Assembly: GCA_000991405.1 (NCBI GenBank)
Contig: LBRL01000001.1
Coordinates: 456,466-520,465, forward strand
Reading direction: 5' to 3'
Source: Candidatus Nomurabacteria bacterium GW2011_GWD2_36_14
GTDB lineage: Bacteria; Patescibacteriota; Minisyncoccia; Phycocordibacterales; UBA9973
DNA: 64,000 nt
Shown here: piece after piece, positions 1 to 48,613 of the stretch
How positions within the stretch are numbered: position 1 is the first letter of the stretch
Layout of the letters: the number at the start of each line of letters is the position of its first letter
Notes under the pieces: model-generated
Database searches by the model: none
What the model was told of the DNA's origin: nothing
The model's input: only the letters and a program-made list of their open reading frames with translations
Position numbers and translations under genes: made by a program

Positions 1-817
<817 letters not shown>

Positions 818-2930: not shown

Positions 2931-2955
2931 ACATTAAGTATACCATATTTCCTGC

Positions 2956-3041: not shown

Positions 3042-3136
3042 ATAATAACAATTATACCTTATCATATTTAAGATTTTTACTCAAAATTGTAATTTTATAT
3101 TTAAAGATAATTATGTTAATATAATCAGAGTTAAAA

Positions 3137-3223: not shown

Positions 3224-3269
3224 CAAATTATATGGTATAATTATATTATTATTTAAATAATATAAATTT

Positions 3270-3677: not shown

Positions 3678-3714
3678 TCTTCTTAAAAAGTTAAAACCTG
3701 TTATACTATATAAT

Positions 3715-4470: not shown

Positions 4471-4493
4471 TCATTGTGGTATAATAACAACAT

Positions 4494-4856: not shown

Positions 4857-4858
4857 AT

Positions 4859-4887
4859 AACACCGAGATGCCTCGGTGTTATTTTGT
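4859..4887 (+). terminator. rho-independent terminator after REC gene
   Basis: AACACCGAG-ATGC-CTCGGTGTT hairpin followed by ATTTTGT. Confidence 0.6.
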
Positions 4888-7178: not shown

Positions 7179-7179
7179 A

Positions 7180-7225
7180 AATTACAATTAAGAAACGGCC
7201 GTTTCTTAATTGTAAAATTATATTT
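7180..7225 (+). terminator. rho-independent terminator of recG
   Basis: 15-bp perfect palindrome ACAATTAAGAAACGG|CCGTTTCTTAATTGT followed by AAAATTATATTTTTATA. Confidence 0.65.
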
Positions 7226-7234
7226 TTATAATTG

Positions 7235-7308
7235 TCCGTCCTCTAGGATTCGAACCTAGGACCCCAGAGGTATAAGCTCTGTGCTCTAACCAACTGAGCT
7301 AAGGACGG
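7235..7308 (-). tRNA. tRNA with anticodon UAU (AUA-decoding Ile-type)
   Basis: RC fold: acceptor CCGUCCU/AGGACGG + A73; D arm GCUC-AGUUGGUUA-GAGC; anticodon stem CAGAG/CUCUG, loop CUUAUAC; T arm CUAGG-UUCGAAU-CCUAG. Confidence 0.7.
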
Positions 7309-7353
7309 ATTGGTTAAACTAAACATATATTACATAAAAACAGCCCAATAAGC

Positions 7354-7392
7354 AACCAACCCCGAAGCGAAGCTTCGGGGTTGGTTTTATTT
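7354..7392. terminator. strong GC hairpin + T-run between tRNA and ftsH 3' end (terminator/processing hairpin)
   Basis: AACCAACCCCGAAG-CGAAG-CTTCGGGGTTGGTT followed by TTTATTTGTTT on plus strand. Confidence 0.5.
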
Positions 7393-7406
7393 GTTTACTT
7401 TCTACT

Positions 7407-26827: not shown

Positions 26828-29563
26828 TTACAAATTCCTATACTTCTCCATTATCTCTTCTTCTACTTCTTCACGAAGGCGACCGTACTTGAGGTACGAT
26901 AACTCCTTGATCTTATCAACTATTTCTGTATTACCCTTTGGAGTTAGGCTCCAGTGGGAAGTCATAGAAAATGGCTTCGTCGGTGTACCATTTACCAGCA
27001 TTGAGACATATGAATTGAAATTATCCAACTTCATAATATCTGTTGCTGTGAAAGTTGGCTTGAATCTTGGCTCTATGAAGCTCGCATCCTCGGTACTGAT
27101 TCGATAGATAGCCATCGAACCCACGTTTCCGAAGACAGCATTCTTAATACCCTCTTCAAGTTGAGAAATATACTGGTGAGCCACAGTCAAAGACAAGCGG
27201 TACTTACGAGCTTCAGAAAGTATTGAGGCTATTGAGTCCGTCGTGACATTTTGGAATTCATCGATATATAGATAGAAGTCATTCATTTTCTGCCCATACA
27301 TATCTACACGAGAAAGCGCCGCCATCTGAATCTTGCCGACAAGCAGAAGTCCTATTAGATTGGCATTTACTTCTCCAAGTCTACCTTTAGAAAGATTGAT
27401 CAAAAGTATCTTTTTATTGTCCATGATCTCACGGAAGTTAAAGGCTGACTTCTCCTGAAGCACCACTGGACGCATGATGTCGTTCGATATAAAGTTGTCG
27501 AACTTGGAAGTAATGTATGGCACGAAGTTGGCAATGGACTGGTCCCCTGTTGTCTTCTCGGCATTGGCCCAGAATTCTTTGACGATTGGGTTCTTGCATT
27601 TAGCACAAAGTGCATCTCGGTATTCCTTGTTGCCAAGTATGCGCGTGATATCAAGTAAGGTTGCATGAGCTTCTGGATCATCCATGGCTAGGAAGGCACT
27701 GTTCTTGAAATATTGTTCGAACATCGGACCGCCTGAAGTCTTCATATCAAAAAGTTTATTGAAGATACTCATAAGCTCGTTGACCACGAAAGTCTTCTGT
27801 TCAGGATACTTGGGATCATACTCAAGCATGTTGAGCCCCATAGGACGAGCTGTATAAGCAGGGTCAAAGTATATGACGTCATCAATACGCTCCTTGGGTA
27901 CATAACTCAAGATGTCTTGGATATCACTACCATGCGGATCAATAAAGCAACATCCCTCCCCGTTCTTAATATCCTGCGCAATCATATTCTTCAATATTGT
28001 AGTCTTACCTGTACCAGTCTGTCCTATGACGTACATATGACGCATACGATCTTCGCGACTCATACGTATCTCTGTATCCTTACCTCGGTAGCTATTGATA
28101 CCCAAGAGTATCCCCTCACTGCCCATCTCAAGAGGAGCTGGGGCAAAGCCGGCCTTAGCCTGCTTGAGCTGTGAAGATACCACTCCATTGGGAAAGTGAA
28201 AGACCGTTGCAAGCTCTTTCAGATTGAGTGGCATCGAGTAATTATCAGAGAAGGTTCGATAAGAGAAATCATGAATGAGATTCATTAGAGACGAACCCGT
28301 AGGATGATTAAAATTGAAACCATTCCTGTCTGACTCGGTGAATTGATTGAAGGAGGACTCTATTTCAGAGAGTATTTGTTTGGATCTACTTTCGTCTTCT
28401 GCTGAAGCCATGATACGGATGTTGGTAGCCATGATAGTACTCTTGAGCTTCTCGCCGATGTACTCAACAGCCTTATCATTTACCTTTTTCTCTTCTTTCT
28501 TTTTAGAAGCTCCAAAAAGTAATTCGGACGCCAAATTCTTAAATTCTTTCGTGACTTGGCGAGTCATACTAGAGGCTGTACGAACCGACATCCCATTCTT
28601 CACATCAGAGTGAATGATGTGAAACTTTCTGATAATGTCTTCGTCTTCAGGACAAATAGAGAATTGAATTGCCGCTCCTTCGCCTTCCTTCTTTAACTTC
28701 GTAAAGACATTGAGAATGATATTTAAAGGATCGTGGTCGATAGCATCATAAAGCTTGATAGGATAGACTTCATGATGAGCGAGAGTAGCATAAGAGGCAC
28801 TGATAGATGCATGCTCAGAGAAAATATTGTAATCATCTGGCACTTCTGTAACTTTTGCATCCAAGTTCACTCCGAGAAGTTGCTTCTCGAAAAGTTCTGC
28901 CTTATTCGTAGGTACCGCAACGTAGAATACAAAGCTATCAGATCCTTCAGAAAGAGCAATCTCTAGGGTAAAGTGATTCCTATTATAATTCTCTCTACCT
29001 TCCCCCACTGAGTGCATACCTGCATAGAATTGCTCCATGGCAGAAAGTAATTCTTTCAAACCCTTCTTTTCTTTATCGTTATCAGCTGCATCTGGAAGAG
29101 TAATTTCGAAAAGTTTCATATCTAGAGATTTGAAGAGGGGTGTACCTTCTTTAAGTCCAGGAACTTTGTGAGTTGTATACAAGTATTGAACAAGGAAACG
29201 ATGGAAGTCGTCATCTAGGTGAGGATTGTTCATTTTGGCAATAACAGAAAGAACGTTGGAAATACCTTTGTCTAGTAGTATTGCAAGCATTTCTTCCATT
29301 TTGGCATCATGACCTTCTGGATGTAACCTCAAAACCAAACTTTCAACTTCTTTTTTACCCATGACTGCACTTTTATGCATTACATCTTCTGGCTCATACT
29401 TTCTGTATTCATGGATTACATCATGAGCAAGCATTTCCTTATTGGCCTCCTTGCCTTGTTCTACCAAGGCCTTCTCTTTCTCTGCGATATGCGCACGCAA
29501 AAATTCTAACTCCTCTTGTGGAGTCTTAAATTTAGGAGCATTGTTCAAATTAAATCCTTCCAT
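26828..29563 (-). CDS. FtsK/HerA-superfamily P-loop ATPase resembling type IV secretion coupling proteins (TraD/TraG/VirD4/TrwB-like), no N-terminal TM
   Basis: Walker A GQTGTGKTT, downstream FIDPHGSD (DPKG-like), Walker B YLYIDEF, C-terminal ARKYRLSLTVAHQYISQL; ~450-aa non-ATPase N-terminal region. Confidence 0.5.
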   Translation of the reverse strand: MEGFNLNNAPKFKTPQEELEFLRAHIAEKEKALVEQGKEANKEMLAHDVIHEYRKYEPEDVMHKSAVMGKKEVESLVLRLHPEGHDAKMEEMLAILLDKGISNVLSVIAKMNNPHLDDDFHRFLVQYLYTTHKVPGLKEGTPLFKSLDMKLFEITLPDAADNDKEKKGLKELLSAMEQFYAGMHSVGEGRENYNRNHFTLEIALSEGSDSFVFYVAVPTNKAELFEKQLLGVNLDAKVTEVPDDYNIFSEHASISASYATLAHHEVYPIKLYDAIDHDPLNIILNVFTKLKKEGEGAAIQFSICPEDEDIIRKFHIIHSDVKNGMSVRTASSMTRQVTKEFKNLASELLFGASKKKEEKKVNDKAVEYIGEKLKSTIMATNIRIMASAEDESRSKQILSEIESSFNQFTESDRNGFNFNHPTGSSLMNLIHDFSYRTFSDNYSMPLNLKELATVFHFPNGVVSSQLKQAKAGFAPAPLEMGSEGILLGINSYRGKDTEIRMSREDRMRHMYVIGQTGTGKTTILKNMIAQDIKNGEGCCFIDPHGSDIQDILSYVPKERIDDVIYFDPAYTARPMGLNMLEYDPKYPEQKTFVVNELMSIFNKLFDMKTSGGPMFEQYFKNSAFLAMDDPEAHATLLDITRILGNKEYRDALCAKCKNPIVKEFWANAEKTTGDQSIANFVPYITSKFDNFISNDIMRPVVLQEKSAFNFREIMDNKKILLINLSKGRLGEVNANLIGLLLVGKIQMAALSRVDMYGQKMNDFYLYIDEFQNVTTDSIASILSEARKYRLSLTVAHQYISQLEEGIKNAVFGNVGSMAIYRISTEDASFIEPRFKPTFTATDIMKLDNFNSYVSMLVNGTPTKPFSMTSHWSLTPKGNTEIVDKIKELSYLKYGRLREEVEEEIMEKYRNL

Positions 29564-29769: not shown

Positions 29770-30537
29770 TTATATTTTCGTCAATATTTCTGCCTCTCCT
29801 TCAGTAATTAGAATAGTATGTTCAAAGTGAGCTGAGCGTGAACCGTCTGCTGTTTTGATAGTCCAGTCATCCGACGCACTGACAATCGAAGCCTTGCCAA
29901 TATTTAGCATTGGTTCTATGGCGATAATCATTCCCGGTATAAGCTTGACCCCTTTACCCTTTTTGCCATAGTTCGGTATATATGGATCTTCGTGTATCTT
30001 CACTCCGACTCCATGTCCCGAAAGCTCTCTGACTATACCGTACTTTCTGTTTACAAAGGATTCTATGGCGTGCCCAATATCCCCGACAGTAGCACCTCCC
30101 TGCGCTGCCCAAATGCCCACCTCAAGAGCTTTCTTCGTATAATCGAGAAGTTGCTGATCCTTCTTCGAAATCTTCCCTACAGCGACAGTGACAGCATGGT
30201 CAGTAAATAGTCCCTTGTATTCAAGCCCCAAGTCTAGAGAAACAATATCGCCTTCTTTTAATATTTTCGTTTTAGTAGGAATACCGTGAACTATCTCATT
30301 ATTCACTGATATGCAGATAGTAGCAGGGAAAGCCTTCGGAGCCCCTTCAGGCCTATAATTCAAAAAAGCAGGAATCCCTCCCTCTTTTATTATTAAATCA
30401 TGTGCATATTTATCAAGTTCGAAAGTCGAAATACCAGGCTTTGCCTTCTTGGCAACCTTATCCAATACCCTCGCCAGTATCTTCCCCCCTTCTCTTATAA
30501 TCTTTATTTGTTCTTTATTTTTTACAATAACCGTCAT
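29770..30537 (-). CDS. map: methionine aminopeptidase type I
   Basis: 255 aa; MTVIVKNKEQIKIIREGGKILA..., metal-ligand D/D/H/E/E pattern of MetAP-I. Confidence 0.85.
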   Translation of the reverse strand: MTVIVKNKEQIKIIREGGKILARVLDKVAKKAKPGISTFELDKYAHDLIIKEGGIPAFLNYRPEGAPKAFPATICISVNNEIVHGIPTKTKILKEGDIVSLDLGLEYKGLFTDHAVTVAVGKISKKDQQLLDYTKKALEVGIWAAQGGATVGDIGHAIESFVNRKYGIVRELSGHGVGVKIHEDPYIPNYGKKGKGVKLIPGMIIAIEPMLNIGKASIVSASDDWTIKTADGSRSAHFEHTILITEGEAEILTKI

Positions 30538-30662
30538 ATATCATCATACTATCCCAAAACCTCAATATAATCAAACCAATTCTCCCAGATAGAGCTCCGG
30601 GCCCTATCTGGGAGAGTGAATTCATTTACCAATCTAAACCTATGGGTTTGAGTTGGTAAAGA

Positions 30663-31205
30663 TTATAAAGAGATAATTCCGTTATATTTAGAACTGATTA
30701 TCAAACCTTTGTACTTAGGTAAATCTACCTTATTGGCTACTTCGGTTTTTTCTGGATATGAGAAAAATATTTTTGTTTTAAAATTAATTCCCAAGAGTTC
30801 ATTTCTAAATGCACATTTATCTATATCCCCAGAGAAAATTACATACTTATGGTCTTTTAGTTTATTAAAAAGTTTTATACTATATTCTTCTATGTTCTTA
30901 AATAAAATAATTCTTTCATCTAAATCTTTTATTTTATCTAGCTCTTTTATGAAGTCATCTTCGTCTCCAGTTGGAATTATTATAATATTTTCATTCATTC
31001 TGCCATTAAGCTGGTCTCTAAATAATTCTTTCGCAGGATCAAAGCCTGTAAAGAATACAATCTTTTCTCCTTGTTCAAACAACTTGGTCATAAGTGATAC
31101 ACTGAAAAATGAAGCTCCACTTTGCACAAAAGCCTTACCGTTTATAAACATTGGAAAATCTTCTTTATTAAAAACCACTTCCTGCTCATTTATTGATATT
31201 TTCAT
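30663..31205 (-). CDS. hypothetical protein
   Basis: 180-aa ORF flanked by hairpins with shared CCAGATAG/CTATCTGG stems. Confidence 0.3.
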   Translation of the reverse strand: MKISINEQEVVFNKEDFPMFINGKAFVQSGASFFSVSLMTKLFEQGEKIVFFTGFDPAKELFRDQLNGRMNENIIIIPTGDEDDFIKELDKIKDLDERIILFKNIEEYSIKLFNKLKDHKYVIFSGDIDKCAFRNELLGINFKTKIFFSYPEKTEVANKVDLPKYKGLIISSKYNGIISL

Positions 31206-31248
31206 AAATTATTCTTCCAGATAGGGGTTGAACCCCTATCTGGGGTTA

Positions 31249-32946
31249 TTAATACACTTCCTGTTGATAGCACTTCTCACAGTATACTATTTCTGGTCGG
31301 TCGGGAGAATATGAGGTTTCGAATTCATTAGTACAACCCTCTTTCATACAAGAGCGATGGTAAAAATGAGGTGAATTACGTAATTGCAATCTTTCATAGT
31401 GACGACAATTAGGACATAACCTAGGTAATGGAATATTCATTCTTTTACAAAAATCAACTTCTTTTTCAATAACCCTAAAAGCCCCAACACATTCATGATG
31501 ACAATTTCCTTGATGAGCACATTCAATAATTTCATTTAAAATATTTTTATCTACATCTTGAATATCATCAGGAATTTCTGCATTTTTTAATGTTATTTTA
31601 TAATCTTGACCTAAAGTTGAATACCATGTAAATCCTTGCTCTTTAGCAACTTGTTCTTCTAATGGAAAAAATTCATATGCTTCTGTTGCCTGATATGGCC
31701 AAGGAGATAACGATGATGGGAAAAATTCACCATACTCACCAGTTGTTTTCATATGTTCAATTATTTTTGGAATCAATTCTTCATATTTTTCTTTTGTATA
31801 CTGTTTATTTAAAATACAATATTCTTTTTTACGAAGTGAAATACATCCAAACAAATTTGAACACGAGGGAAAACAAAAGAAACAATAAGTAAGATTTTTA
31901 CCATTTTGAACAACTTGAGAAGAAAATTTAACATTAGATATCCCACTTCCAACAACTAATGATTCATATATAAGCTCTACATTATCTCCATAATTTGCAT
32001 AATCGTAACAATCATTCACTGGACCAGTTAAAATATTTTGAATAAATTTACTATTTTCAACCTCTTTAACTCTAAAACAATTTAGAGCATTTTTGGACTC
32101 ATAAATATAATCACCTAAAACAGTTAGGTTTTGCTTTCCATGAATAAATTTATGAGGATATTTTAGCCAATGTTTATATGCTTGATCTTTTAATGATTGA
32201 AAATCTTTTTCTGAACCAAAATTAAATTCTGATAATTTCTTTTTATATTCTTCTTTTGTATAAGGCTTATTAAATATATAATATGATTTATTTCGAAGTC
32301 CAATTGAAGCAATACAATTATTACAACCTATGCAATCTTTGCATAAAATTGTATCTTGGCAAATTTCACAATCAACTGAAAAGAAAGTCTTATAGCAAGA
32401 AATAGTATTTACATTACCATAACTTAATTCGCATTGATCTGTCATGTGACTATCTAAACATTCTTTTGATTTTTGATCCCAAATAAGATAAGCAGAATCT
32501 TCTGTAAAAGATGCACCACGTACCAAATAACAACCTTTGATATTATTAGAATTTGTACAATATTCGCAATCTGTAATATACATCATGGAGTGTGCAGGGA
32601 GAGGAACTGTATGTAATAATTCTTTGAATTGTTCAAAAAAAGTTTTAGAAAAATCATAATCCTTACCATATGTAGTTGGGTCCCAATCATCTGAAATCCA
32701 ATAATCTCGATCATAAATTTTTACTGGACTTTCTTCGGGAAACAATGAAAAAATCTTTTTACCATTAAGACTGTCCGTTTTTTTAAATAAATGCCATCCA
32801 TTTCTCCAAGACATTCGACGCTGTAAACGACAATTAGGACAGAAGGTTGGAGGAGGGACTTTAATCTTCTCATAAAAAGAAAAGTCATCAGGTTCAATAA
32901 TAAAGTCTTTTTTACAGTTTTGGCAGGTCTTCGTTTGTGATTCCAT
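31249..32946 (-). CDS. large Cys-rich protein of unknown function (paralog A)
   Basis: N-terminal CQNCKKDF-IE-DF-FY-KIKVP-PTFCP-CR; many CxxC/CxC repeats; C-terminal NIPLP-LCPNCR...YC-KCYQQE-Y; paralogous to 52761-54512. Confidence 0.5.
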   Translation of the reverse strand: MESQTKTCQNCKKDFIIEPDDFSFYEKIKVPPPTFCPNCRLQRRMSWRNGWHLFKKTDSLNGKKIFSLFPEESPVKIYDRDYWISDDWDPTTYGKDYDFSKTFFEQFKELLHTVPLPAHSMMYITDCEYCTNSNNIKGCYLVRGASFTEDSAYLIWDQKSKECLDSHMTDQCELSYGNVNTISCYKTFFSVDCEICQDTILCKDCIGCNNCIASIGLRNKSYYIFNKPYTKEEYKKKLSEFNFGSEKDFQSLKDQAYKHWLKYPHKFIHGKQNLTVLGDYIYESKNALNCFRVKEVENSKFIQNILTGPVNDCYDYANYGDNVELIYESLVVGSGISNVKFSSQVVQNGKNLTYCFFCFPSCSNLFGCISLRKKEYCILNKQYTKEKYEELIPKIIEHMKTTGEYGEFFPSSLSPWPYQATEAYEFFPLEEQVAKEQGFTWYSTLGQDYKITLKNAEIPDDIQDVDKNILNEIIECAHQGNCHHECVGAFRVIEKEVDFCKRMNIPLPRLCPNCRHYERLQLRNSPHFYHRSCMKEGCTNEFETSYSPDRPEIVYCEKCYQQEVY

Positions 32947-33042
32947 AATATGATTATACTAGAATATCAGCCTAAAATATACAGAACCCAAAAGTGCCCC
33001 TAAGCAAGGCTTATAGGGGCACTCTTTATATTTTGTATTATT

Positions 33043-33086
33043 ACTAGAACCTAGTCACTAGCCCCTAGCCCCTAGCCCCTAGAACC
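33043..33086. repeat. short tandem repeat (CTAGCCC)x3 plus CTAG-rich flank abutting pyrH stop
   Basis: CACTAGCCCCTAGCCCCTAGCCCCTAGAACCTA. Confidence 0.6.
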
Positions 33087-33775
33087 TAATTCTTGATCGT
33101 TGTCCCTGTAAATGCTTCCCCCTTTAGATAATTATTCAAGCCTTCTAGATTGGAACCAGACATAAATGCCACTTCCATGCCATCTTTTTCTGCCATTTCG
33201 GAAGCTATAGGATCGAATGGTGTGTTAGACCCTGGGGTCCACTTGGATGATATGAATGAGCGATATTCCTTCCATGTAAGATTCTCGAACTTCTTGGCTG
33301 TACTGTTTGTCTTTGGGTCGCTATCGTAAACATAGTCTATATTTGAAAGATTGACTATCTTCTTGGCATTAAGTTCTTTGGCTACTAAGACTGCGTCCGT
33401 ATCGGTTGAACACCCTGGTTGCCATCCTGCTCCTATGATAATATCGTCATTGAACTTTGTAACGTCCCTTGGGTCTATCACTATCTGACCAGAGGTATCT
33501 TTCCCAAAGGCAAGCCTCACAAGTTGAGCATTCAACTGTGTAGAATATATACCCATCCAGTCCAAGTCTTCACTCGTAGCTTCTATGACCTTGCTGAGTG
33601 CCTCATTGTAACGTCGGCAAGTCTTACCACCACCAACAATAATCACAAACCTCTTCCCTTTCTCTACCCATTCTAAAATAATCTTTTTGAAATCTTTGAT
33701 AAATTCTGGATTGGGCATGTCTGGGACAACGATTGCTCCTCCTAGTGATATAATTATTGTTTCTTTTTCTTGCAT
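33086..33775 (-). CDS. pyrH: UMP kinase, archaeal-type (amino acid kinase family)
   Basis: IISLGGAIV, VIIVGGGKTCRRY, GAGWQPGCSTDTDAVLVA; 229 aa. Confidence 0.7.
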   Translation of the reverse strand: MQEKETIIISLGGAIVVPDMPNPEFIKDFKKIILEWVEKGKRFVIIVGGGKTCRRYNEALSKVIEATSEDLDWMGIYSTQLNAQLVRLAFGKDTSGQIVIDPRDVTKFNDDIIIGAGWQPGCSTDTDAVLVAKELNAKKIVNLSNIDYVYDSDPKTNSTAKKFENLTWKEYRSFISSKWTPGSNTPFDPIASEMAEKDGMEVAFMSGSNLEGLNNYLKGEAFTGTTIKN

Positions 33776-37808: not shown

Positions 37809-38195
37809 TTACCACATTTTAAACAATACTTCTCCTCCGACCATTTCTTTACGGGCTTGCTTGTCTGTCATGATACCTTTAGGTGTAGAAAATACTGTGA
37901 TAAGGTTACCACCCTTTGTGTATCTGATATCTTTCATTCCTTTATAAACACGACGGGAGGACTTGGAAACGCGTTCTACTTCATTTACCTTTGGTGCTCC
38001 ATCTACATAAGCTATTCCAAGCTCAAGAATAGGGAAACCTTTCTTTGTCTTCTTTGTAGCAGAAGTTAAATATCCTTCTTTGACAAGACATTCGGCGATT
38101 GCATACTTTATTTTAGAAAATGGAACAGTAACGAACTCGTGACTAGCACGACCTCCATTCTTTACCATATTCACCATGTTTGCTATTTGATCCAT
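37809..38195 (-). CDS. rpsH: 30S ribosomal protein S8
   Basis: MDQIANMVNMVKNG... Confidence 0.9.
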   Translation of the reverse strand: MDQIANMVNMVKNGGRASHEFVTVPFSKIKYAIAECLVKEGYLTSATKKTKKGFPILELGIAYVDGAPKVNEVERVSKSSRRVYKGMKDIRYTKGGNLITVFSTPKGIMTDKQARKEMVGGEVLFKMW

Positions 38196-38277: not shown

Positions 38278-38463
38278 CTACCAACTTGATTTACGTACCC
38301 CCGGAAGCATACCTTCGTTTGCTAATTCACGGAAGCATATACGACAAAGACCGAAGTCTCTCATATAAGCATGACCTCGTGAACAACGAAAACAACGATT
38401 TGTTTCTCGTGTACTAAATTTTGACTTTTTTAAATGTCTTGCTGTTACTGATGTTTTTGCCAT
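38278..38463 (-). CDS. rpsZ: 30S ribosomal protein S14 type Z (zinc-binding)
   Basis: 61 aa, CxxC...CxxC (RCFRCSRGH...LCRICFRE). Confidence 0.9.
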
Positions 38464-38585
38464 AAATAAATTAACTTAAGGGTGAAAACCCTCCATAAGT
38501 AATGATATCTCGTTTATTTTCTTCCTAGTCCTTCCCTAATCTCTTTGAGACGGGCAAAGAAGGAGACAAACGGATCTAAAACTCA

Positions 38586-38625
38586 TGTAGCCCCATACTA
38601 GCAAATGAATGAAAAGATGTCAAAT
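38586..38625 (-). promoter_or_regulatory. sigma70-consensus promoter for rpsZ operon: TTGACA(38622-38617)-17-TAGTAT(38599-38594)
   Basis: Minus-sense AATTTGACATCTTTTCATTCATTTGCTAGTATG; near-identical module at 43352-43392. Confidence 0.6.
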
Positions 38626-39282
38626 TAAAAGAGAACATTGTCATAAAAAGCAATGTTCTCAGTTTTTTGTATATTATTTCTTTCTTAATACAAACCAAAT
38701 ACCAATAACGATACTTAGTCCATACCCCAATATAGACCCTACTAGGTTCCAATAAAAAGTAGAACCTGTTGTTATATAGCAACCATATTGGCACAACCCA
38801 CCAATAATGGCGAAATCAATAACAATAATCTGGATTGATTTTCTCTTTTTCATTTTCTGGTTTTTAATAGTTTATTTATTACTTTGCAGCACTTTTTACT
38901 GCCAAAAACATTAGCGTTCCTATAACTGCATTTATTATAAAAAAGAAAAATGCATTTATGAATTTTGCATCAATTTCCTGGTGGAAAAAATAAATTCCAC
39001 CGAACAAAGTTATGCAAAATATTAACACCATTAATACAGCAAGAATAGTTTTCATAATTCAATTATTTTGATTTATATTATTGTTACCTATTTCAAAAAT
39101 CCTCAAAAGACTCTTGAAATAGATAACAATTTATCCGCCGAAGAGGCCGAATTAGCCAAAAAGCTATATAAATCAACTAAAAACCAAAAATATCAAAGAA
39201 CTTAATACTCGTATAGTATAGCATATTTGAGTCAATTTGTCAATGATTTTTAAGGCACATTCAACCTCATTATCCAGTCCTA

Positions 39283-39375
39283 AGCCACGCTTAGGACTGA
39301 TACTTAAAACTAGCGACTGCCCCTGTTACCGAAGCCTTGCTTCGGTAAACCTTTATTTTTAAAGGATTTAATCTC
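39283..39375 (+). terminator. plus-strand tandem hairpins + T-run inside the rplE-rpsZ insertion (candidate antisense sRNA 3' end / bidirectional terminator)
   Basis: AGTCCTAAGC-CAC-GCTTAGGACT then TTACCGAAGC-CTTG-CTTCGGTAA followed by ACCTTTATTTTT. Confidence 0.35.
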
Positions 39376-39443
39376 AATTTTAGACAAAAAAATCAGCACT
39401 TATACCATAACGATACAAGTGCCTCATTTCTTAGATTTAAATT

Positions 39444-39770
39444 TTACTTAATGGAAACATCTCTCAAAAGCTCTTTTTCAACCTTCCTCTTTTTTTTATC
39501 AAGACCCAAAATAGTGATTTCACTATTCTTAGAAGTAAAATTATACTTTTTATACTTCCCATGAAATTCCTGCTTTTCGGTAAGGTAATAGAACCCACCA
39601 TTCTTAATTTTCCAAAAAGAAACTGTTACATTTTTGTGCTCAATAATTTTTGCTGGACTTAATACCAGCATTGTCTTCGTCAGCTCTCTAAAAATTCTTT
39701 CAGATTTTTTAGCACTAACTAACAAAGATAGCAAAAACAACACAACGATAATCATTACTCGCTTTTTCAT
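39444..39770 (-). CDS. small secreted hypothetical protein inserted in ribosomal cluster
   Basis: 108 aa, N-terminal signal peptide MKKRVMIIVVLFLLSLLVSA. Confidence 0.4.
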   Translation of the reverse strand: MKKRVMIIVVLFLLSLLVSAKKSERIFRELTKTMLVLSPAKIIEHKNVTVSFWKIKNGGFYYLTEKQEFHGKYKKYNFTSKNSEITILGLDKKKRKVEKELLRDVSIK

Positions 39771-39879
39771 AGTCTTTGGTTTTAAATTTATATATATACT
39801 TCCATTTTATAAGAAATTTGTCAAAGATTTTTATATCACAAAAATACCCCCTTTCGGGAGTATTTTAAAGTAATTTGTC

Positions 39880-40422
39880 TTACGCTTTCTTAAATGGTAC
39901 ACCTATCAGCTCAAAGAATTCTGTGGCTTCGGCTTTGGTCTTGGCTGTGGTTACAAGTGTAACTCCCATTCCGAATACGTCTTTCAATTCTTCGTCACCT
40001 GTTTCAGGGAAGATAGTATGCTCCTTGATACTCATAGTTAGGTTACCGATATTGTCCACAATCTTTCTTTCAATACCACGGAAGTCCTTTGTACGAGGGA
40101 TAGCTACGTTTATAAGCTTGTCTAGGAATCCATACATACGAGCTCCTCGAAGAGTTACCATGACTCCTACAGGGTCTCCAATACGAATCTTGAAGGATGC
40201 TATAGACTTCTTTGCACTCTTGGTAGCAGGCTTCTGGCCGGTAATCTTGGCAATACGTTCAATAACCATCTTGTTGTGATCCTTGTTGCGCTTTAGTCCT
40301 GAACCTGTGCCTGAAGCTACTATCACCTTTACAAGGTGAGGAGCAGCCATGACATTCTTGTAGCCATACTTGGCCTTAAGTGTACTATATGCTTTCTTTT
40401 CTTTTTGTTTTACTGTTTCCAT
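39880..40422 (-). CDS. rplE: 50S ribosomal protein L5
   Basis: sequence match. Confidence 0.9.
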   Translation of the reverse strand: METVKQKEKKAYSTLKAKYGYKNVMAAPHLVKVIVASGTGSGLKRNKDHNKMVIERIAKITGQKPATKSAKKSIASFKIRIGDPVGVMVTLRGARMYGFLDKLINVAIPRTKDFRGIERKIVDNIGNLTMSIKEHTIFPETGDEELKDVFGMGVTLVTTAKTKAEATEFFELIGVPFKKA

Positions 40423-41388: not shown

Positions 41389-41398
41389 ATTTTTTAAA

Positions 41399-42960: not shown

Positions 42961-43305
42961 TTACTTCTTCTTGGTATCTGTTGCGGCTTTGGCTGATTTG
43001 GATGCGGTAATCTCGGCTTCTTTCTTCTTGGCTTCTAGTTCTTTCTGCATCTTACCTCCGTGTCTGACGAACTTGCGTGTTAGTGAGAATTCTCCAAGTC
43101 TGTGTCCCACCATATCTTCACTGACGAGTACTTCTACATGAACCTTGCCATTGTGGACTCCAAATACGAAGCCTACCATTTCAGGGGAGATCACACATGC
43201 TCGTGACCATGTCTTAATAACGCCTGTTTCTAGAGGTTTCTTTCCAGCAATTTTTTTCAAAAGCCTTTCGTCTACATATGGTCCTTTTTTAAGTGATCTT
43301 GTCAT
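42961..43305 (-). CDS. rpsS: 30S ribosomal protein S19 with K/A-rich C-terminal tail
   Basis: [12 protein letters not shown]...[13 protein letters not shown]. Confidence 0.9.
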
Positions 43306-43351
43306 TTGGTTTTGTATCTACAATATAAATAAGCTCCTTTGAGCTCGTTGG

Positions 43352-43392
43352 TTCATACTAGCAAATGAAAGAATATATGTCAAATTCAAATT
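43352..43392 (-). promoter_or_regulatory. sigma70-consensus promoter for rpsS operon: TTGACA(43383-43378)-17-TAGTAT(43360-43355)
   Basis: Minus-sense AATTTGACATATATTCTTTCATTTGCTAGTATG; shares CATTTGCTAGTATGAAC with 38586-38625 copy. Confidence 0.6.
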
Positions 43393-43404
43393 TTTGGAAT
43401 TAGA

Positions 43405-43797
43405 TTAAAACACCAAAGCTATTACTTTAGGTCCAAAGATTAAGAGCCCTATAACCCCTGCTACAATAGTAGCAATAGAAACAGCCCCAGCAGCTACATC
43501 TTTAGTATCTCTAGCATACGGATGGTAGTTTGGGCTGGTAAGATCTATGTCTATCTCTATTGCTGTGTTAAATGCTTCAGCAATTACAACTAGTCCAATA
43601 GCGAGTATAACTACTGCCCACTCAACAGAAGATAAAGAAAAAACAAAACCCATATATATAGCTAAAATTGCAAAGAATAGATGTATCCATAAATTATGAG
43701 TTGTCTTAATAAAAACTCCCAACCCACGAAGACCATGATTAGTGCTTTTGAAACGAGAAATAATTGAAAACCTCTTTTTCTCTGATATTTTTTCCAT
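43405..43797 (-). CDS. dgkA: diacylglycerol kinase / undecaprenol kinase family membrane protein (DgkA-like)
   Basis: 3 TM; signature AEAFNTAIEIDIDL and DTKDVAAGAV. Confidence 0.6.
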   Translation of the reverse strand: MEKISEKKRFSIISRFKSTNHGLRGLGVFIKTTHNLWIHLFFAILAIYMGFVFSLSSVEWAVVILAIGLVVIAEAFNTAIEIDIDLTSPNYHPYARDTKDVAAGAVSIATIVAGVIGLLIFGPKVIALVF

Positions 43798-44002
43798 GTT
43801 TGTATTATATACTCAAAAATGCAAAAGAAAAACCTTGGTCATAAAACGATCAAGGTTTTCTGATTAAATTTATTCCCCGGTTTAAAAGAACACCAAAACT
43901 TTTATTTTCCGGGCAGGAATCTATTTTACGGAAAACTCCCACAACGTTTGGCCTTTTATTGTTATGAAAGACCGAAATCTATTACTTTTTCATAGGCAAC
44001 AA

Positions 44003-44200
44003 TTATTTTTTAAATAAAAAATCTTCAGACTTTCTGTCTGGAGAGGTAAAATGGATTTCTTTACTTCTTGCAAATAACTTTGGAGATATACGTCCTAAGA
44101 CAATCCCCAAACAAAAAATAATTATATCCCAATAATTAAACGGGGTATAAATAAAAATATAAAATACAATACAAACCACAAATATTAAAATAATTTTCAT
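44003..44200 (-). CDS. small hypothetical membrane protein
   Basis: 65 aa, two hydrophobic helices; inserted between rplB and dgkA-like. Confidence 0.3.
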   Translation of the reverse strand: MKIILIFVVCIVFYIFIYTPFNYWDIIIFCLGIVLGRISPKLFARSKEIHFTSPDRKSEDFLFKK

Positions 44201-44329
44201 AGCGCTAGGTATTATTGGTTTATTTTTTTCAATTTCATTCTAAGCTTATAGTTTATACACAATTTGTCAATACAACAAAAAATTCCCTTTCGGGAATTTT
44301 TTGTTGATAGAGATTTTTGTTTTTTAAAC

Positions 44330-45187
44330 TTAAGCTTTCTTTGACTTTCCAACTTTTCTTCGAGAAACAATCCACATGTTTGAATATTTCTTTGGAGTAC
44401 GAGTCTTCTGGCCTTTTCCTGATGGCTTACCCCACATAGTCTTGGCACGGCGTAGACCTCTTCCTTGGCGTCCTTCACCTCCACCGTGTGGGTGGTCTAC
44501 TGGGTTCATGGCTGTACCACGAACTGTAGGGCGAATTCCTTTCCAGCGAGAGCGTCCTGCTTTACCAAAGTTTTGAAGCTTGAATTCACTGTTTGAAACT
44601 TCACCGATAGATGCCCAAGCATTTTCTGAAACTTTGCGTACTTCTGTAGAAGGCATTTTGACGTTGGTATATCCAAGGTCATTCGCGACTACTTGTCCGA
44701 AGGTTCCAGCTCCGCGAGCAAGCTTTCCTCCGTTACCTGGCTTAATTTCTACATTGTAAACAAATGTTCCAACTGGTATTAGCTTAAGAGGTAAACGATT
44801 CCCAACTGTTAGAGGAGCTTTCTCGGAAACGATAAACTTGTCTCCAACTTTAACTGTTTTAGGTATCACTACGTATCTCTTCTCTCCGTCTGCATAAACT
44901 GCGATACCGATAAAGGCATTGCGGTTTGGATCGTATTCGATAGAAGCTATCTTGGCAGGAATGTCGTGCTTGTTGTACATGAAGTCTATCTCTCTGTAAA
45001 GTCTCTTGTGTCCACCCCCTTTATGTCGAGTAGTTATACGTCCCTGATTGTTACGTCCGACAGATCTTTTGAAACCATGAGTTAAAGCTTTCAAGGGCTC
45101 ACTTGTAGTTAAAACTTTTCTGTAAGTAACGGTAGTCTGGTGACGCTTTGATGGTGTTGTAGGTTTGTATGTTTTCATATTATGCAA
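44330..45187 (-). CDS. rplB: 50S ribosomal protein L2
   Basis: sequence match; 8-nt overlap with rplW. Confidence 0.95.
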   Translation of the reverse strand: MHNMKTYKPTTPSKRHQTTVTYRKVLTTSEPLKALTHGFKRSVGRNNQGRITTRHKGGGHKRLYREIDFMYNKHDIPAKIASIEYDPNRNAFIGIAVYADGEKRYVVIPKTVKVGDKFIVSEKAPLTVGNRLPLKLIPVGTFVYNVEIKPGNGGKLARGAGTFGQVVANDLGYTNVKMPSTEVRKVSENAWASIGEVSNSEFKLQNFGKAGRSRWKGIRPTVRGTAMNPVDHPHGGGEGRQGRGLRRAKTMWGKPSGKGQKTRTPKKYSNMWIVSRRKVGKSKKA

Positions 45188-47413: not shown

Positions 47414-48613
47414 CTATTTAATGATCTTTGTTACAACACCAGCACCAACTGTTTTACCTCCTTCACGGATAGCAAAGTGCATAGTTTCTTCAAGAGCAAC
47501 TGGGGTTACAAGTTTAACTCCTAGTTTAACTGTATCTCCTGGCATAACCATTTCTACTCCGGCTGGTAATGTAGACTCACCTGTAACGTCTGTTGTACGG
47601 ATATAGAACTGAGGCTTGTATCCTGTGAAGAATGGTGTGTGACGTCCTCCTTCTTCCTTTTTCAAAATGTAAACTTCACATTCGAATTCTGAGTGAGGAG
47701 TAACTGTTCCTGGCTTTACTAGAACTTGTCCACGAGTTACATCTTCCTTCTTGATTCCACGGATAAGGATTCCAGCATTATCGCCAGCCATACCTTGCTT
47801 CAAATTTTTGTTGAACATTTCAATACCAGTAACTGTTGTCTTGGCTGTATCTTTAATACCAACGATTTCAACATCTTCACCAACATTGATAACTCCACGT
47901 TCGATCTTACCAGTCACAACTGTTCCACGTCCTTCGATTGAGAATATATCCTCAATAGGCATTAGGAATGGCTTTGTAACATCACGTTCTGGAACTGGAA
48001 TATAAGTATCAAGAGCATTTACAAGGTCAAGGATCTTAGTTGCCCATTCATTTGTATTGTCAGCTGATTCAAGAGCCTTAAGAGCTGAACCACGGATAAC
48101 TGGAGCATTTGCACCATCAAATCCTTGCTTTGTAAGAAGTTCACGAACTTCTTCTTCAACTAGTTCAAGCATATCAGGATCATCAACCATGTCGCACTTG
48201 TTTAGGAATACGATAATCTTAGGAACGTTCACTTGCTTTGCTAGAAGGATGTGCTCACGTGTCTGTGGCATAACTCCGTCTGTAGCAGCAACTACGATAA
48301 CTGCACCGTCCATTTGAGCGGCACCTGTAATCATGTTCTTAATATAGTCGGCGTGTCCTGGAGCATCGATGTGAGCGTAGTGACGTGTTGGTGTCCAGTA
48401 CTCATTGTGAGAAAGAGCGATCGTGATACCACGAGCCTTTTCTTCAGGAGCTGAGTCGATTTGATCGACACCTTTAATCTTCGCACCATATTCACCACCT
48501 TGTCTTGCTAAAATCTGCAAAATAGCCGCGGTTAGTGTAGTTTTCCCATGATCGACGTGACCAATAGTACCTACGTTTACGTGAGGCTTATCTCTTTTAA
48601 ATTCTTCTGCCAT
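47414..48613 (-). CDS. tuf: elongation factor Tu
   Basis: [19 protein letters not shown]; 399 aa. Confidence 0.95.

Follow-up and report, generated by a model that had tools for sequence, protein, structure and literature searches.

The window, a stretch of 64,000 nt from Candidatus Nomurabacteria bacterium GW2011_GWD2_36_14, carries a tuf-S10-spc ribosomal protein cluster on its minus strand. According to the list of ORFs, the genes run in the order tuf, rpsJ, rplC, rplD, rplW, and rplB, then a gap of 1024 bp (43306-44329), then rpsS, rplV, rpsC, rplP, rpsQ, rplN, rplX, and rplE, then a second gap of 1416 bp (38464-39879), and finally rpsZ, rpsH, rplF, rplR, rpsE, rplO, secY, and adk. An earlier note on this DNA had described the cluster as retaining its order but being interrupted at rplE|rpsZ and rplB|rpsS, which these measurements bear out. 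A third break, absent from that note, separates the UMP-kinase gene (3′ of adk) from map; it spans 2548 bp and contains two ORFs, one of 565 aa that is Cys-rich and one of 180 aa. Both of the first two gaps contain small genes with promoter-like and terminator-like sites between them. The genes that border the gaps, together with rpsH, are as follows.

44330-45187, minus strand: rplB (L2), final gene of the predicted first unit (ORF; contigs of the species)
42961-43305, minus strand: rpsS (S19), opens the predicted middle unit (ORF; contigs of the species)
39880-40422, minus strand: rplE (L5), final gene of the predicted middle unit (ORF; Pfam Ribosomal_L5; query for the relatives' loci)
38278-38463, minus strand: rpsZ (type Z S14), opens the predicted third unit (NF005974, 98.9 bits; cut-off 77)
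37809-38195, minus strand: rpsH (S8), whose product is the putative leader ligand (NF001109, 120.9 bits; cut-off 119)

Just 5′ of both rpsZ (38623-38595) and rpsS (43383-43355) lies the promoter-like sequence TTGACA-N17-TAGTAT. Written with its extended −10 element, the match is perfect at both sites, and these are the only two perfect matches in the 64 kb.

38595-38623, minus strand: extended −10 promoter of the rpsZ unit, TTGACA-N14-TGCTAGTAT (perfect consensus match)
43355-43383, minus strand: extended −10 promoter of the rpsS unit, TTGACA-N14-TGCTAGTAT (perfect consensus match; by-eye alignment)

We compared this arrangement with that in 80 related Paceibacteria/Nomurabacteria species genomes. 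The looser pattern TTGACw-N13-15-TGnTAnnnT occurs within 260 nt upstream of rpsS in 64 of 69 loci and of rpsZ in 54 of 62, and upstream of 18 other cluster genes it occurs in 0-1 loci each. A terminator-like site follows rplE within 90 nt in 40 of 60 loci and follows rplB in 38 of 57. Within the window, terminator-like hairpins are enriched between 38000 and 45000, with 13 observed versus 4.4 expected. The new promoters that had been proposed for the inserts are thus present as consensus matches, and transcription appears to restart at each. Because promoters, terminators, and unit boundaries are all called as consensus matches, we word the organization as a proposal: the tuf-S10-spc cluster, here and in Paceibacteria relatives, would comprise three transcription units rather than one operon, namely …tuf-rplB, rpsS-rplE, and rpsZ-…-secY-adk-pyrH. 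We give this reading, taken jointly with the whole of the explanation developed below, a probability of about 0.6.

The two junctions stand out in length across the lineage. The rplE|rpsZ junction has a median of 1214 bp (range 132-8603) and exceeds 500 bp in 43 of 60 genomes; the corresponding figures for rplB|rpsS are 838 bp (range 18-5567) and 44 of 57. The medians of all 21 other junctions are at most 73 bp, and 17 of these junctions never exceed 500 bp; lengths above 500 bp occur once at rplO|secY, in 8 of 79 cases at rplX|rplE, in 11 of 47 at secY|adk, and in 7 of 31 at pyrH|map. Even among the closest relatives (L5 at least 90% identical), the gap varies from 206 to 4143 bp. "Empty" junctions consist of the promoter and leader alone, with or without the terminator, and 130-200 bp are kept. 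The cargo ORFs, 266 in number, fall into 186 clusters, 162 of which are singletons, and 78-84% share the orientation of the operon. Pfam families in the cargo are of ordinary kinds and include PG_binding_1, guanylate kinase, TruB, NUDIX, pilin-like, and HTH/Gp49. The cargo evidently turns over fast.

The earlier note had taken nested accessory genes to be rare in this cluster and to reflect recent insertion, and had allowed that insertions found throughout the lineage would instead be a lineage feature. By that reasoning, the synteny comparison makes them largely a lineage feature: both junctions are expanded and variable in relatives, the promoters are lineage-wide, and dgkA (see below) recurs in 29 of these genomes. 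If a mobile element had recently carried foreign DNA into an operon that was otherwise intact, this would account for a cargo at rplE|rpsZ that is nearly unique to the species and for a cargo GC content (0.27-0.33) below that of the flanking ribosomal genes (0.40-0.47). However, low GC is usual for non-ribosomal genes elsewhere in the window (30600-32700), and the break points and leader, like the promoters and the position of dgkA, extend far beyond this species. No integrase, recombinase, or transposase gene is found in the inserts of the window. At rplE|rpsZ in 60 genomes, 103 cargo ORFs with lengths of 75 aa or more matched 33 Pfam families, and the 25 commonest of these include neither integrases nor transposases. 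Flanking direct repeats at the inserts do not exceed chance, and no tRNA lies near either junction. Arrays of a CTAG heptad, considered as possible insertion scars, are not peculiar to the two junctions but occur scattered through several spacers between genes. The cargo is also fixed: each of the 24 contigs read for this species has the same cargo at rplE|rpsZ. The mobile-insertion reading is therefore largely refuted, and we regard it as highly improbable. The species-specific part is, as far as these loci indicate, only this genome's particular rplE|rpsZ cargo.

Since all data come from metagenome assemblies, chimeric contigs could in principle join unrelated DNA within the cluster through errors of assembly or binning. 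This explanation is hardly credible, because the arrangement is repeated in 24 independent contigs read of the species, including an 800,830-bp scaffold, because analogous arrangements occur in dozens of species from different studies, and because the boundaries are sharp and coincide with regulatory signals that are conserved.

Three separate units could explain why cargo accumulates where it does. The inserts are bounded by a terminator-like hairpin at one end and a promoter-like site at the other. Gain and loss of DNA would be tolerated at such boundaries because they are already transcriptionally insulated, leaving co-transcription and translational coupling of the ribosomal genes unbroken, and the boundaries would therefore have become hot spots for variable cargo. 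Exchange of cargo would most likely proceed by homologous recombination anchored in the highly conserved flanking ribosomal genes rather than by a mobile element.

The cargo of the rplE|rpsZ gap in this genome, in the direction of transcription of the ribosomal genes, comprises the following features.

39840-39864, minus strand: terminator-like hairpin 3′ of rplE, AAUACUCCC-GAAA-GGGGGUAUU followed by a U run (read from the sequence)
39796-39824, minus strand: promoter-like site of orf108, TTGACAAATT...AAGTAT (2 mismatches to consensus)
39444-39770, minus strand: orf108, 108 aa, orphan cargo with a signal-peptide-like N-terminus (ORF)
39395-39423, minus strand: terminator-like hairpin 3′ of orf108 (13-bp stem, then a T run)
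39255-39400, strand not assigned: spacer containing three perfectly paired hairpins (z = -6.5 for the plus strand and -3.9 for the minus strand)
39215-39243, minus strand: promoter-like TTGACA-N17-TATACT for orf58-orf59 (11/12 consensus match)
39056-39210, minus strand: highly structured 5′ UTR of orf58 with a 24-bp hairpin at 39080-39130 (MFE -47.9 kcal/mol, z = -6.9; inverted repeat I4)
38879-39055, minus strand: orf58, 58-aa protein with two predicted transmembrane (TM) segments, orphan cargo (ORF)
38674-38853, minus strand: orf59, 59-aa protein with two predicted TM segments, orphan cargo (ORF)
38631-38660, strand not assigned: hairpin 3′ of orf59 with T runs on both sides, terminator-like in both directions (plus-strand call; on the minus strand then TTTTAATTT)

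The terminator-like hairpin of rplE is 92-97% identical in the related loci L001, L002, and L007. The sequence AAAAATCWTTGACAAATT is common to the promoter-like site of orf108 and the promoter at 39243 (repeat D1). In GenBank, orf108 is a hypothetical protein and is present on 29 contigs; no Pfam family scores above its cut-off. Its one relative among the 80 relatives' loci is 44% identical and lies at the same junction in L002, and a comparison with 5.8 billion protein clusters gave no further homolog besides orf108 itself. None of the 80 loci contains a match to the spacer at 39255-39400. This spacer does contain the plus-strand terminator-like hairpin that had been reported for this insert (39326-39348, followed by a T run). 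The promoter-like site and UTR of orf58-orf59 are ~77% conserved in L002, and the UTR is conserved in part in L002, L012, and L006. A membrane ORF of about 58 aa had been placed at roughly 38885-39060 and called unannotated; the ORF is present, at 38879-39055, but its product has GenBank entries as a hypothetical protein, KKP91479.1 among them. It occurs on 37 contigs and forms a singleton cluster. The neighboring orf59, which the earlier note lacks, is likewise a GenBank hypothetical protein (HAQ02606.1 and others) on 17 contigs and a singleton cluster.

On the plus strand opposite orf58 and its UTR, weak promoter-like sites were seen at 39022-39079, and the hairpin at 39326-39348 lies on this strand as well. 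A type I toxin-antitoxin system would pair a small hydrophobic TM peptide with an antisense RNA overlapping the peptide's long structured 5′ UTR. Set beside this pattern, orf58 and orf59 would encode TM peptides of 58 and 59 aa, the UTR, with its z of -6.9, is predicted to be highly structured, and the plus strand may specify an antisense RNA.

The features of the rplB|rpsS gap are as follows.

44277-44300, minus strand: terminator-like hairpin 3′ of rplB, AAAAUUCCC-GAAA-GGGAAUUUU followed by a U run (sequence)
44003-44200, minus strand: orf65, 65-aa protein with two predicted TM segments, orphan cargo (ORF; annotated as hypothetical, 43 contigs, singleton cluster)
43405-43797, minus strand: dgkA-like lipid kinase gene, 130 aa (Pfam DAGK_prokar, E = 1.8e-31)
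43306-43350, minus strand: short leader of rpsS, with a conserved hairpin of 6 bp, GAGCUC-N4-GAGCUU (43346-43331), then UAUUUAUAUU (by-eye alignment; z = -2.7)

The rplB hairpin is 84-92% identical in many loci. The dgkA product matches PF01219 with 108.4 bits against a cut-off of 22.3 and covers profile positions 2-102 of 102, as expected of a full-length DAGK_prokar protein, a family of ~120-130 aa with three TM segments. It matches no NCBIfam equivalog that would point to diacylglycerol or undecaprenol as its substrate. Because the TATAAT box ends 6 nt before the ATG, the dgkA mRNA is probably leaderless. All 29 relatives in the dgkA cluster carry the gene at rplB|rpsS, and dgkA is a long-term resident of this junction. 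The hairpin of the rpsS leader is kept in most loci, with a few compensatory variants. The small membrane and secreted ORFs and the DgkA-like gene that had been noticed in the inserts are thus confirmed by the ORFs and the Pfam match.

It might be argued that most of the gap sequence is spacer without function, neutral in its expansion and contraction, and that the small ORFs of the window are spurious. Short hydrophobic AT-rich ORFs arise readily by chance, and orf58, orf59, orf65, and orf108 have no homologs with one exception. That exception, the relative of orf108 at the same place in L002, already speaks against a neutral origin, as do the clear Pfam domains in cargo genes of many relatives, the prevailing co-orientation of cargo with the operon, and dgkA, which is clearly a real gene. 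In addition, each ORF of the window is bracketed by promoter-like and terminator-like signals, and each cargo gene appears to have its own promoter and terminator. Neutral spacer is accordingly an unlikely explanation. By itself, this window's own cargo of orphan secreted or membrane peptides and dgkA is unremarkable.

Between its promoter and rpsZ, the rplE|rpsZ gap carries a conserved structured RNA that the earlier note does not mention.

38464-38588, minus strand: conserved structured leader of rpsZ-rpsH (independent MFE folds, covariation, and a covariance model)

The structured part, ~110 nt, lies directly upstream of rpsZ-rpsH and is found in every relative examined. Helix P1 pairs 38587-38581 with 38500-38494, and P2 pairs 38572-38566 with 38517-38511. 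Between P1 and P2 is a core that resembles an S8 site (38577-38573 and 38509-38504), and beyond P2 are an internal loop CUC/AAA, helix P3, and a variable apical hairpin. A second small hairpin follows at 38493-38478. Independent MFE predictions give the same fold, which is more stable than that of shuffled sequence (z = -3.2), and 95% of alignment cells are paired, compared with 36-53% in slid controls. Compensatory changes occur at 13 of 16 pairs, and RNAalifold recovered P2 and P3 independently. P1 is just 57-66% paired across the alignments, and its longest contiguous helix, 6.9 bp versus 6.0 bp in shuffles, makes a weak contrast because AT-rich flanks pair easily; we therefore regard P1 as likely, though with less certainty than the core and helices P2 and P3. 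The covariance model finds one match per locus, always immediately upstream of rpsZ, in 64 sources that include members outside those used in model building. Exact sequence patterns recover just 2-33 of 67 known members, with many chance matches expected. Shine-Dalgarno (SD) sequences are nearly absent in this genome (4 of 63 ORFs) and many genes look leaderless, and a structured 5′ UTR of 125 nt is exceptional here for that reason.

The leader has no match among the 4227 models of Rfam 15, and at Rfam gathering thresholds the whole window yields only tmRNA and three tRNAs. Sub-threshold matches by E-value in both inserts, among them miRNA-like hairpins and a CRISPR-DR on the rplB terminator, were set aside as chance, as was a match to L10_leader (21.7 bits against a cut-off of 44) in non-conserved spacer.

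The core of the leader was compared with the S8 site of 16S helix 21, following published rules for that site (PMC4176348). The reference was E. coli 16S rRNA with verified numbering; no 16S gene lies in the window or in the relatives' loci, and the comparison for this lineage is thus with E. coli rRNA. UC at 38574-38573 and GAUA at 38509-38506 reproduce the arrangement of U598-C599 opposite G639-A640-U641-A642. Across 56 species, five of the eight invariant columns of the leader are the equivalents of U598, C599, G639, A640, and A642, and the equivalent of U641 is U in at least 90% of leaders and C in 2. The pair corresponding to 596-644 (columns 25-110) is GC in 32, AU in 21, CG in 2, and broken in one; that corresponding to 597-643 (columns 26-109) is AU in 51 and GC in 5, with none broken. 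A rival canonical pairing, 26-107, has one-sided or broken changes and no compensatory change. Residue 595, which forms a triple with 596-644 in rRNA, is A in E. coli and G in Thermus; its equivalent in the leader is always an unpaired nucleotide 5′ of the pair, A in the window (38577) and U in many relatives. A descriptor of the S8 core matched E. coli 16S rRNA only at 596-644 and matched the leader at 38504-38576. With ~23 chance matches per 128 kb, a match in one sequence is not significant alone, and we rejected the descriptor as a stand-alone detector for being too unspecific.

The leader could instead be a real structured RNA that does not respond to S8, either binding S14, L6, L18, or S5 or acting only as a 5′ stabilizer or transcription attenuator. 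Nothing in the S8 site corresponds to the nearly invariant CUC/AAA loop or to the base of P3, and S8 mimicry does not explain them; the second hairpin is followed by an A/U-rich tract before the AUG, and the rpsS leader has a similar small hairpin and U-rich tract without an S8-like core. The 597-643 equivalent, moreover, is A-U in 51 of the 56 leaders versus G-C in E. coli 16S. Against this, five of the eight invariant columns coincide with S8-core nucleotides that are conserved universally, and do so with the correct asymmetry, and the flanking pairs covary across the loop exactly like 596-644 of rRNA. S8 is also a primary rRNA binder and the known repressor of the same gene block in E. coli, and the element here sits in the mRNA that encodes S8, always directly 5′ of rpsZ-rpsH (median gap between these two genes, 30 nt). 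We consider a leader without an S8 response unlikely, though far from negligible.

The promoter sequence, the leader structure, and the resemblance to helix 21 are shown by these comparisons, and the leader is probably an S8 autoregulatory operator, a candidate identified by its sequence features. S8 in excess of free 16S rRNA would bind the leader and lower the expression of rpsZ-rpsH and downstream genes. In the window, 41 nt separate the end of the core from the rpsZ AUG; this distance is 24-41 nt for most relatives and more than 100 nt for some, and the core does not overlap a ribosome-binding site or start codon as the operator at E. coli rplE does. In compact leaders such as that of L041, no part other than the 3′ strand of P1 lies as close as ~10 nt to the AUG. 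With the core ~40 nt or more from the AUG, direct occlusion of the start site in the E. coli mode is not guaranteed. Repression could act by blocking the start region, which lacks an SD sequence, by attenuation at the second hairpin, or through mRNA decay.

Autoregulation of ribosomal proteins through rRNA mimicry is well studied in E. coli, and the operators are mostly limited to Gammaproteobacteria. To our knowledge, little has been described on how ribosomal proteins and rRNA are balanced in other phyla, and nothing for the uncultivated, ribosome-reduced CPR. A clean, covarying mimic of the S8 site in every relative examined is a directly testable candidate and may be an example of the same solution evolved elsewhere in the operon. 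The ribosomal protein block is also a standard phylogenetic marker and a contiguity check for CPR genomes. That it is routinely interrupted at two defined junctions, apparently boundaries of transcription units, by up to 8.6 kb of variable genes should help annotation, quality control of binning, and studies of gene flow in CPR symbionts. If our reading is correct, the ribosomal cluster is both the most conserved and among the most plastic places in these streamlined genomes. In its most specific form, that reading holds that the leader represents an undescribed, S8-responsive family of ribosomal protein leaders in Patescibacteria, that it arose independently of the E. coli operator and heads a separate rpsZ unit, and that the breaks there and before rpsS are the lineage's preferred sites of accessory gain and loss; we advance this full statement tentatively, at somewhat less than even odds. 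The literature searched contained no relevant description of an S8 leader outside Gammaproteobacteria or of interrupted ribosomal operons in Patescibacteria.

Like the S8 operator of the E. coli spc operon, the leader is an mRNA element in the spc block on an S8-encoding transcript, an irregular hairpin whose asymmetric loop corresponds to the helix 21 core (U598 and C599 opposite G639, A640, U641, and A642) between Watson-Crick flanks, with an invariant core and a variable distal stem. The E. coli operator overlaps the rplE start codon, whereas the leader described here forms the rpsZ 5′ UTR after a dedicated promoter, so that L5 would lie outside the regulated unit. The leader core is nearer to the rRNA site than is the E. 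coli mRNA site (AGUAC/GAUUACU). The covariance model matches neither E. coli 16S rRNA nor the spc operator, and the likeness is one of motif only. According to PMC3616713, the E. coli element is confined to Gammaproteobacteria. The leader also resembles the r-leaders of Rfam (Eckert & Weinberg 2020, PMC7247131) in being a covarying 5′ UTR of a ribosomal protein operon and a plausible rRNA mimic found by synteny and covariation; no S8, S14, or rpsZ leader is described in that work. As far as the literature searched goes, r-leader studies do not cover Patescibacteria/CPR.

The S10-spc cluster of mycobacteria has non-ribosomal genes between ribosomal genes, and such genes are therefore not unique to CPR. 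In M. tuberculosis, the junctions concerned, after rpsQ and after rplO, differ from those used here, and as far as we know the mycobacterial content is stable rather than highly variable. The junctions also resemble flexible genomic islets, which likewise occupy fixed positions with conserved core flanks and differ in content among close relatives; like these, rplE|rpsZ shows no mobility genes among the top 25 of its 33 Pfam families. Unlike flexible genomic islets, the hot spots described here lie inside the normally tight S10-spc cluster and coincide with conserved internal promoters, one of them with a candidate regulatory leader.

The host of the window is a low-GC member of the Patescibacteria (CPR), by exact protein matches a Candidatus Nomurabacteria bacterium (GW2011_GWE2_36_115, RIFOXYC2_FULL_36_8 and further assemblies), and its minus-strand ribosomal cluster lies in three blocks. 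Gaps of 1024 bp at the rplB-rpsS junction and 1416 bp at rplE-rpsZ lie between them, and a third gap, of 2548 bp, lies between the UMP-kinase gene and map.

Ribosomal blocks and gap ORFs (window positions; small ORFs are named by length in amino acids)
47414-48613, minus: tuf, first block, with rpsJ, rplC, rplD, rplW and rplB (44330-45187)
44003-44200: orf65, rplB-rpsS gap
43405-43797: DAGK_prokar protein (dgkA; E = 1.8e-31), rplB-rpsS gap
42961-43305, minus: rpsS, middle block, with rplV, rpsC, rplP, rpsQ, rplN, rplX and rplE (39880-40422)
39444-39770, minus: orf108, signal-peptide-like N-terminus, rplE-rpsZ gap
38879-39055, minus: orf58, two TM segments, rplE-rpsZ gap
38674-38853, minus: orf59, two TM segments, rplE-rpsZ gap
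38278-38463, minus: rpsZ, third block, with rpsH, rplF, rplR, rpsE, rplO, secY, adk and the UMP-kinase gene

The split described in the earlier note is thus real: both gaps, their ORFs, and promoter-like and terminator-like sites were located. The 58-aa ORF that it listed in the rplE-rpsZ gap is present, although already annotated in GenBank, and the second ORF, of 59 aa, had been missed.

The UMP-kinase gene (33086-33775, minus; 229 aa, amino-acid-kinase gene) lies 1 nt from the end of adk. It is of the archaeal type, scoring 184.8 bits with TIGR02076 pyrH_arch (cut-off 158) and only 56.7 bits with the bacterial pyrH model. The adk-pyrH pair is kept in 36 related loci, so pyrH belongs to the spc-type unit in this lineage. 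The rplP-rpsQ junction (41389-41398) is a 10-nt gap without the L29 gene (rpmC), as in ~50 relatives, and tblastn across the whole 64 kb gave no L29 match. A ~60-aa L29 is retained between rplP and rpsQ in ~24 more distant relatives, and the gene may be lost, or moved elsewhere, in the sub-clade of the window. Loci noted for this junction are L030, L034, L039, L040, L044, L045, L056, L057, L060, L064-L069, L072-L075, L077 and L080. L30 is missing between rpsE and rplO, a known CPR trait. To either side of the cluster lie the genes for a 911-aa protein that has a TrwB/HerA-type ATPase motif, resembling type IV secretion coupling proteins (26828-29563, minus), and for an 832-aa surface protein containing fn3 (48953-51451, minus). 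The alpha operon (infA...rpoA) does not lie downstream of map within the window. Elsewhere, ARAGORN predicts a tRNA-Ser with anticodon ACT, reading AGU (3137-3224, plus; Rfam tRNA 56 bits), adjoining a tRNA-Ser(GCT) on the opposite strand; an unmodified A34 would be unusual.

Gaps were surveyed in 80 loci from GTDB species representatives, collected with an L5 query (all Paceibacteria/Nomurabacteria MAGs, L5 62-94% identical), with 24 cluster genes located per locus by tblastn.

Gap sizes at cluster junctions among related loci
rplE-rpsZ: 60 loci; median 1214 bp; range 132-8603; 43 above 500 bp
rplB-rpsS: 57 loci; median 838 bp; range 18-5567; 44 above 500 bp
rplX-rplE: 79 loci; median 46 bp; range 4-7666; 8 above 500 bp
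secY-adk: 47 loci; median 73 bp; range 5-2122; 11 above 500 bp
pyrH-map: 31 loci; median 45 bp; range -3 to 3478; 7 above 500 bp
rplO-secY: 54 loci; median 10 bp; range -133 to 1683; 1 above 500 bp
Remaining 17 junctions: 36-79 loci; medians at most 46 bp; maximum 379 bp; 0 above 500 bp

The rare, recent insertions proposed in the earlier note do not survive this survey, in which rplE-rpsZ and rplB-rpsS are expanded and variable across related species. Among genomes with L5 at least 90% identical to that of the window, the shortest rplE-rpsZ gap is 206 bp (L004, empty) and the longest 4143 bp (L018). Empty sites, 130-200 bp in total, are made up of the promoter and a ~110-nt leader, with or without a terminator, and occupied sites carry their cargo after the end of rplE and before the rpsZ promoter. 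Because empty sites keep promoter and leader, the ancestral operon of the lineage was already split here. Instead of a rare insertion that broke up an intact superoperon, the split in the window is one case of a lineage-wide design.

Hot spots change position among sub-clades, as one sub-clade (L051, L055, L058, L061, L063, L070, L078) has a tight rplB-rpsS junction (50-110 bp) and carries 1.3-7.7 kb at rplX-rplE instead. From the same group come loci with a secreted ~450-aa protein containing a peptidoglycan-binding domain (cluster C3), recurrent at rplE-rpsZ (L042, L043, L051, L055, L061, L063, L078). In the window, the third variable junction, pyrH-map (30538-33085), holds orf180 (30663-31205), without a family match, and orf565 (31249-32946), a Cys-rich 565-aa protein with many CxxC pairs, a weak treble-clef Pfam match only and no NCBIfam family. 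Homologs of orf565, 37-45% identical, occupy the same junction in L013, L015, L019, L024 and L057.

The break points rplE-rpsZ and rplB-rpsS are, as judged from promoter and terminator patterns, predicted transcription-unit boundaries. In a consensus scan, TTGACA-N17-TAGTAT with an upstream TG immediately precedes both rpsZ (site at 38623-38595) and rpsS (site at 43383-43355), and another strong promoter-like site lies at 39243-39215. Only the rpsZ and rpsS sites match TTGACA-N14-TGCTAGTAT perfectly in 64 kb. An extended -10 pattern of the lineage (TTGACw-N13-15-TGnTAnnnT), sought up to 260 nt upstream of each gene, precedes rpsS in 64/69 loci and rpsZ in 54/62, and occurs in 0-1 loci for each of 18 other tested genes. 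Terminator-like hairpins number 13 between 38000 and 45000, against 4.4 expected. Among the related loci, a hairpin of this type comes after rplE in 40/60 and after rplB in 38/57, and those of the window (~39864-39840 and 44300-44277, respectively) are 84-97% conserved in relatives.

An SD-like motif precedes only 4 of 63 long ORFs in the window, and a TATAAT-like box ends 6-9 nt before the ATG of many genes (for example 43804-43809 before dgkA, map at 29770-30537, and 31249-32946). These patterns suggest that leaderless mRNAs and gene-by-gene promoters are the norm in this genome, against which the long structured 5' UTR of rpsZ stands out. Intergenic spacers also carry heptad arrays, (CTAGNNN)n, such as CTAGAACCTAGTCACTAGCCCCTAGCCCCTAGCCCCTAG just 3' of pyrH (33044-33082). 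Others lie in L002 (12582-12599, 13653-13677), L004 (10111-10135), L005 (3582-3606), L009 (6488-6505), L011 (2834-2858), L018 (5931-5955, 8642-8666), L029 (406-423, 6181-6205, 6229-6253) and L068 (5191-5208), and some stand as insertions after the rpsZ leader and before the start codon of rpsZ. In general, the window is poor in CTAG (154 observed, 208 expected).

The 266 ORFs of at least 45 aa at the two main junctions form 186 clusters, 162 of them singletons. The sole widely shared cargo gene is dgkA, found in 29 relatives and always at rplB-rpsS. The 103 cargo proteins at rplE-rpsZ match 33 Pfam families. The 25 most frequent of the 33 represent ordinary cellular functions, and no integrase or transposase is among these 25; matches include peptidoglycan-binding domains, DUF2177, pilin N-methylation motifs, guanylate kinase, TruB, adenylate kinase, NUDIX, TrmB and HTH/Gp49 pairs. 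Cargo ORFs of at least 75 aa share the operon direction in 78-84% of cases, and a search for flanking repeats and tRNA genes at the junctions found none. For orf108, a single relative was found (44% identical, same junction of L002), with no further homolog among 5.8 billion clusters, and orf58, orf59 and orf65 are each a singleton cluster; the rplE-rpsZ cargo of the window is close to species-specific. Within the species of the window the cargo is fixed, the identical-L5 contigs that we read having the same neighbours in 24/24 cases. The picture is one of long-lived hot spots with quick turnover between species, rather than a recent event in this genome.

Between its promoter and rpsZ lies a conserved RNA (38588 to 38464, minus), for which independent MFE folds of ~60 orthologous regions share one architecture.

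Elements of the rpsZ leader, from the outside inward
P1: variable in sequence; CAUGAGU/ACUUAUG in the window
Asymmetric internal loop: between P1 and P2
P2: CGUUUGU/AUAAACG
3x3 loop: CUC/AAA, after P2
P3: CUUAAG/UUUAAG type
Apical hairpin: variable, beyond P3

When 56 species are aligned with MAFFT, pairing at the 16 core pairs reaches 95%; sliding the 3' partners by 1-3 columns lowers it to 36-53%. Compensatory changes occur in 13/16 of these pairs. The covariation score is 0.49 versus 0.18 in shuffles, none of 500 reaching 0.49. P2 and P3 also emerge independently from RNAalifold, where 15/19 predicted pairs have compensatory changes, and the leader of the window folds better than shuffled sequence (z = -3.2). 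A covariance model built from the alignment gives one match per locus, always directly upstream of rpsZ, also in non-seed members (L011, L056, L065, L078, L079 and a truncated L054), with no second site in the window. The leader matches no family of Rfam 15 even at E = 10.

We propose that this element, at the head of the rpsZ unit, is a candidate for a new S8-responsive leader. The second gene of the unit, rpsH, encodes S8, a primary rRNA binder. Of eight invariant columns, five spell U-C in the 5' and G-A-(U)-A in the 3' half of the asymmetric loop. They are the nucleotides of the conserved helix 21 core at which S8 binds 16S rRNA, in a comparison made with the E. coli sequence. The E. coli core, checked on rrsH, is A595 A596 G597 U598 C599 / G639 A640 U641 A642 C643 U644, in which U641 forms a triple with 597-643 and residue 595 one with 596-644, a pair that is A-U in E. 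coli and C-G in Thermus (PMC4176348). In the leaders, both of these pairs have equivalents whose two sides covary almost perfectly across the loop: the 596-644 equivalent is GC 32, AU 21 and CG 2 times, with one exception, and the 597-643 equivalent AU 51 and GC 5 times, with none; most leaders thus have A-U where E. coli 16S has G-C. A plain helix with a canonical alternative pair (columns 26-107) is energetically favoured, but its changes are one-sided or broken only, which makes the helix 21-like geometry the one preferred by the comparative data. A descriptor of the S8 core matches E. coli 16S at 596-644 only and the leader at 38504-38576. Because it gives ~23 chance matches per 128 kb, the S8 argument draws its weight from conservation and covariation rather than from one descriptor match. 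The residue 595 equivalent varies among leaders, and the S8 reading does not account for the invariant CUC/AAA loop and P3 base.

In E. coli, S8 represses the corresponding gene block by binding at the rplE start, an mRNA element reported as restricted to Gammaproteobacteria (PMC3616713). Eckert & Weinberg 2020 (PMC7247131) report no leader for S8 or S14, and our literature searches yielded none either. The AUG comes after the leader core at a distance of 24-41 nt, or of >100 nt in loci with an insertion of extra sequence, so repression need not follow the E. coli mode. In compact relatives, the P1 3' strand reaches ~10 nt from the AUG, making occlusion of a start region that lacks an SD possible. 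Alternatively, a second small hairpin (38493-38478) followed by an A/U-rich tract could act by attenuation.

In the 45-50 nt between promoter and rpsS, a 6-bp hairpin is conserved, GAGCUC-N4-GAGCUU (43346-43331), with UAUUUAUAUU after it. Most loci have this hairpin, with a few compensatory variants; its possible roles are 5' stabilisation, attenuation or protein binding. In the sub-clade with the tight rplB-rpsS junction, a promoter-like TTTACT...TGATATAAT still lies directly before rpsS.

An extremely structured 5' UTR (39210-39062; z = -6.9), including a 24-bp hairpin, precedes orf58. L002 retains this UTR and its promoter at ~77% conservation, although the membrane protein encoded downstream there is a different one. 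The adjoining spacer (39255-39400), conserved in no relative, has three perfect hairpins, and a plus-strand hairpin at 39326-39348 is terminator-like. Speculatively, an antisense RNA could be made opposite this UTR, an arrangement with small TM peptides that is reminiscent of type I toxin-antitoxin modules.

Overall, the lineage-wide design combines a cluster divided into three predicted transcription units with insulated junctions, two in number but three to five in places, that are hot spots for accessory genes. Both r-protein autoregulatory leaders and core-flanked hot spots are already known kinds of element, and to the former the rpsZ leader adds a new candidate.
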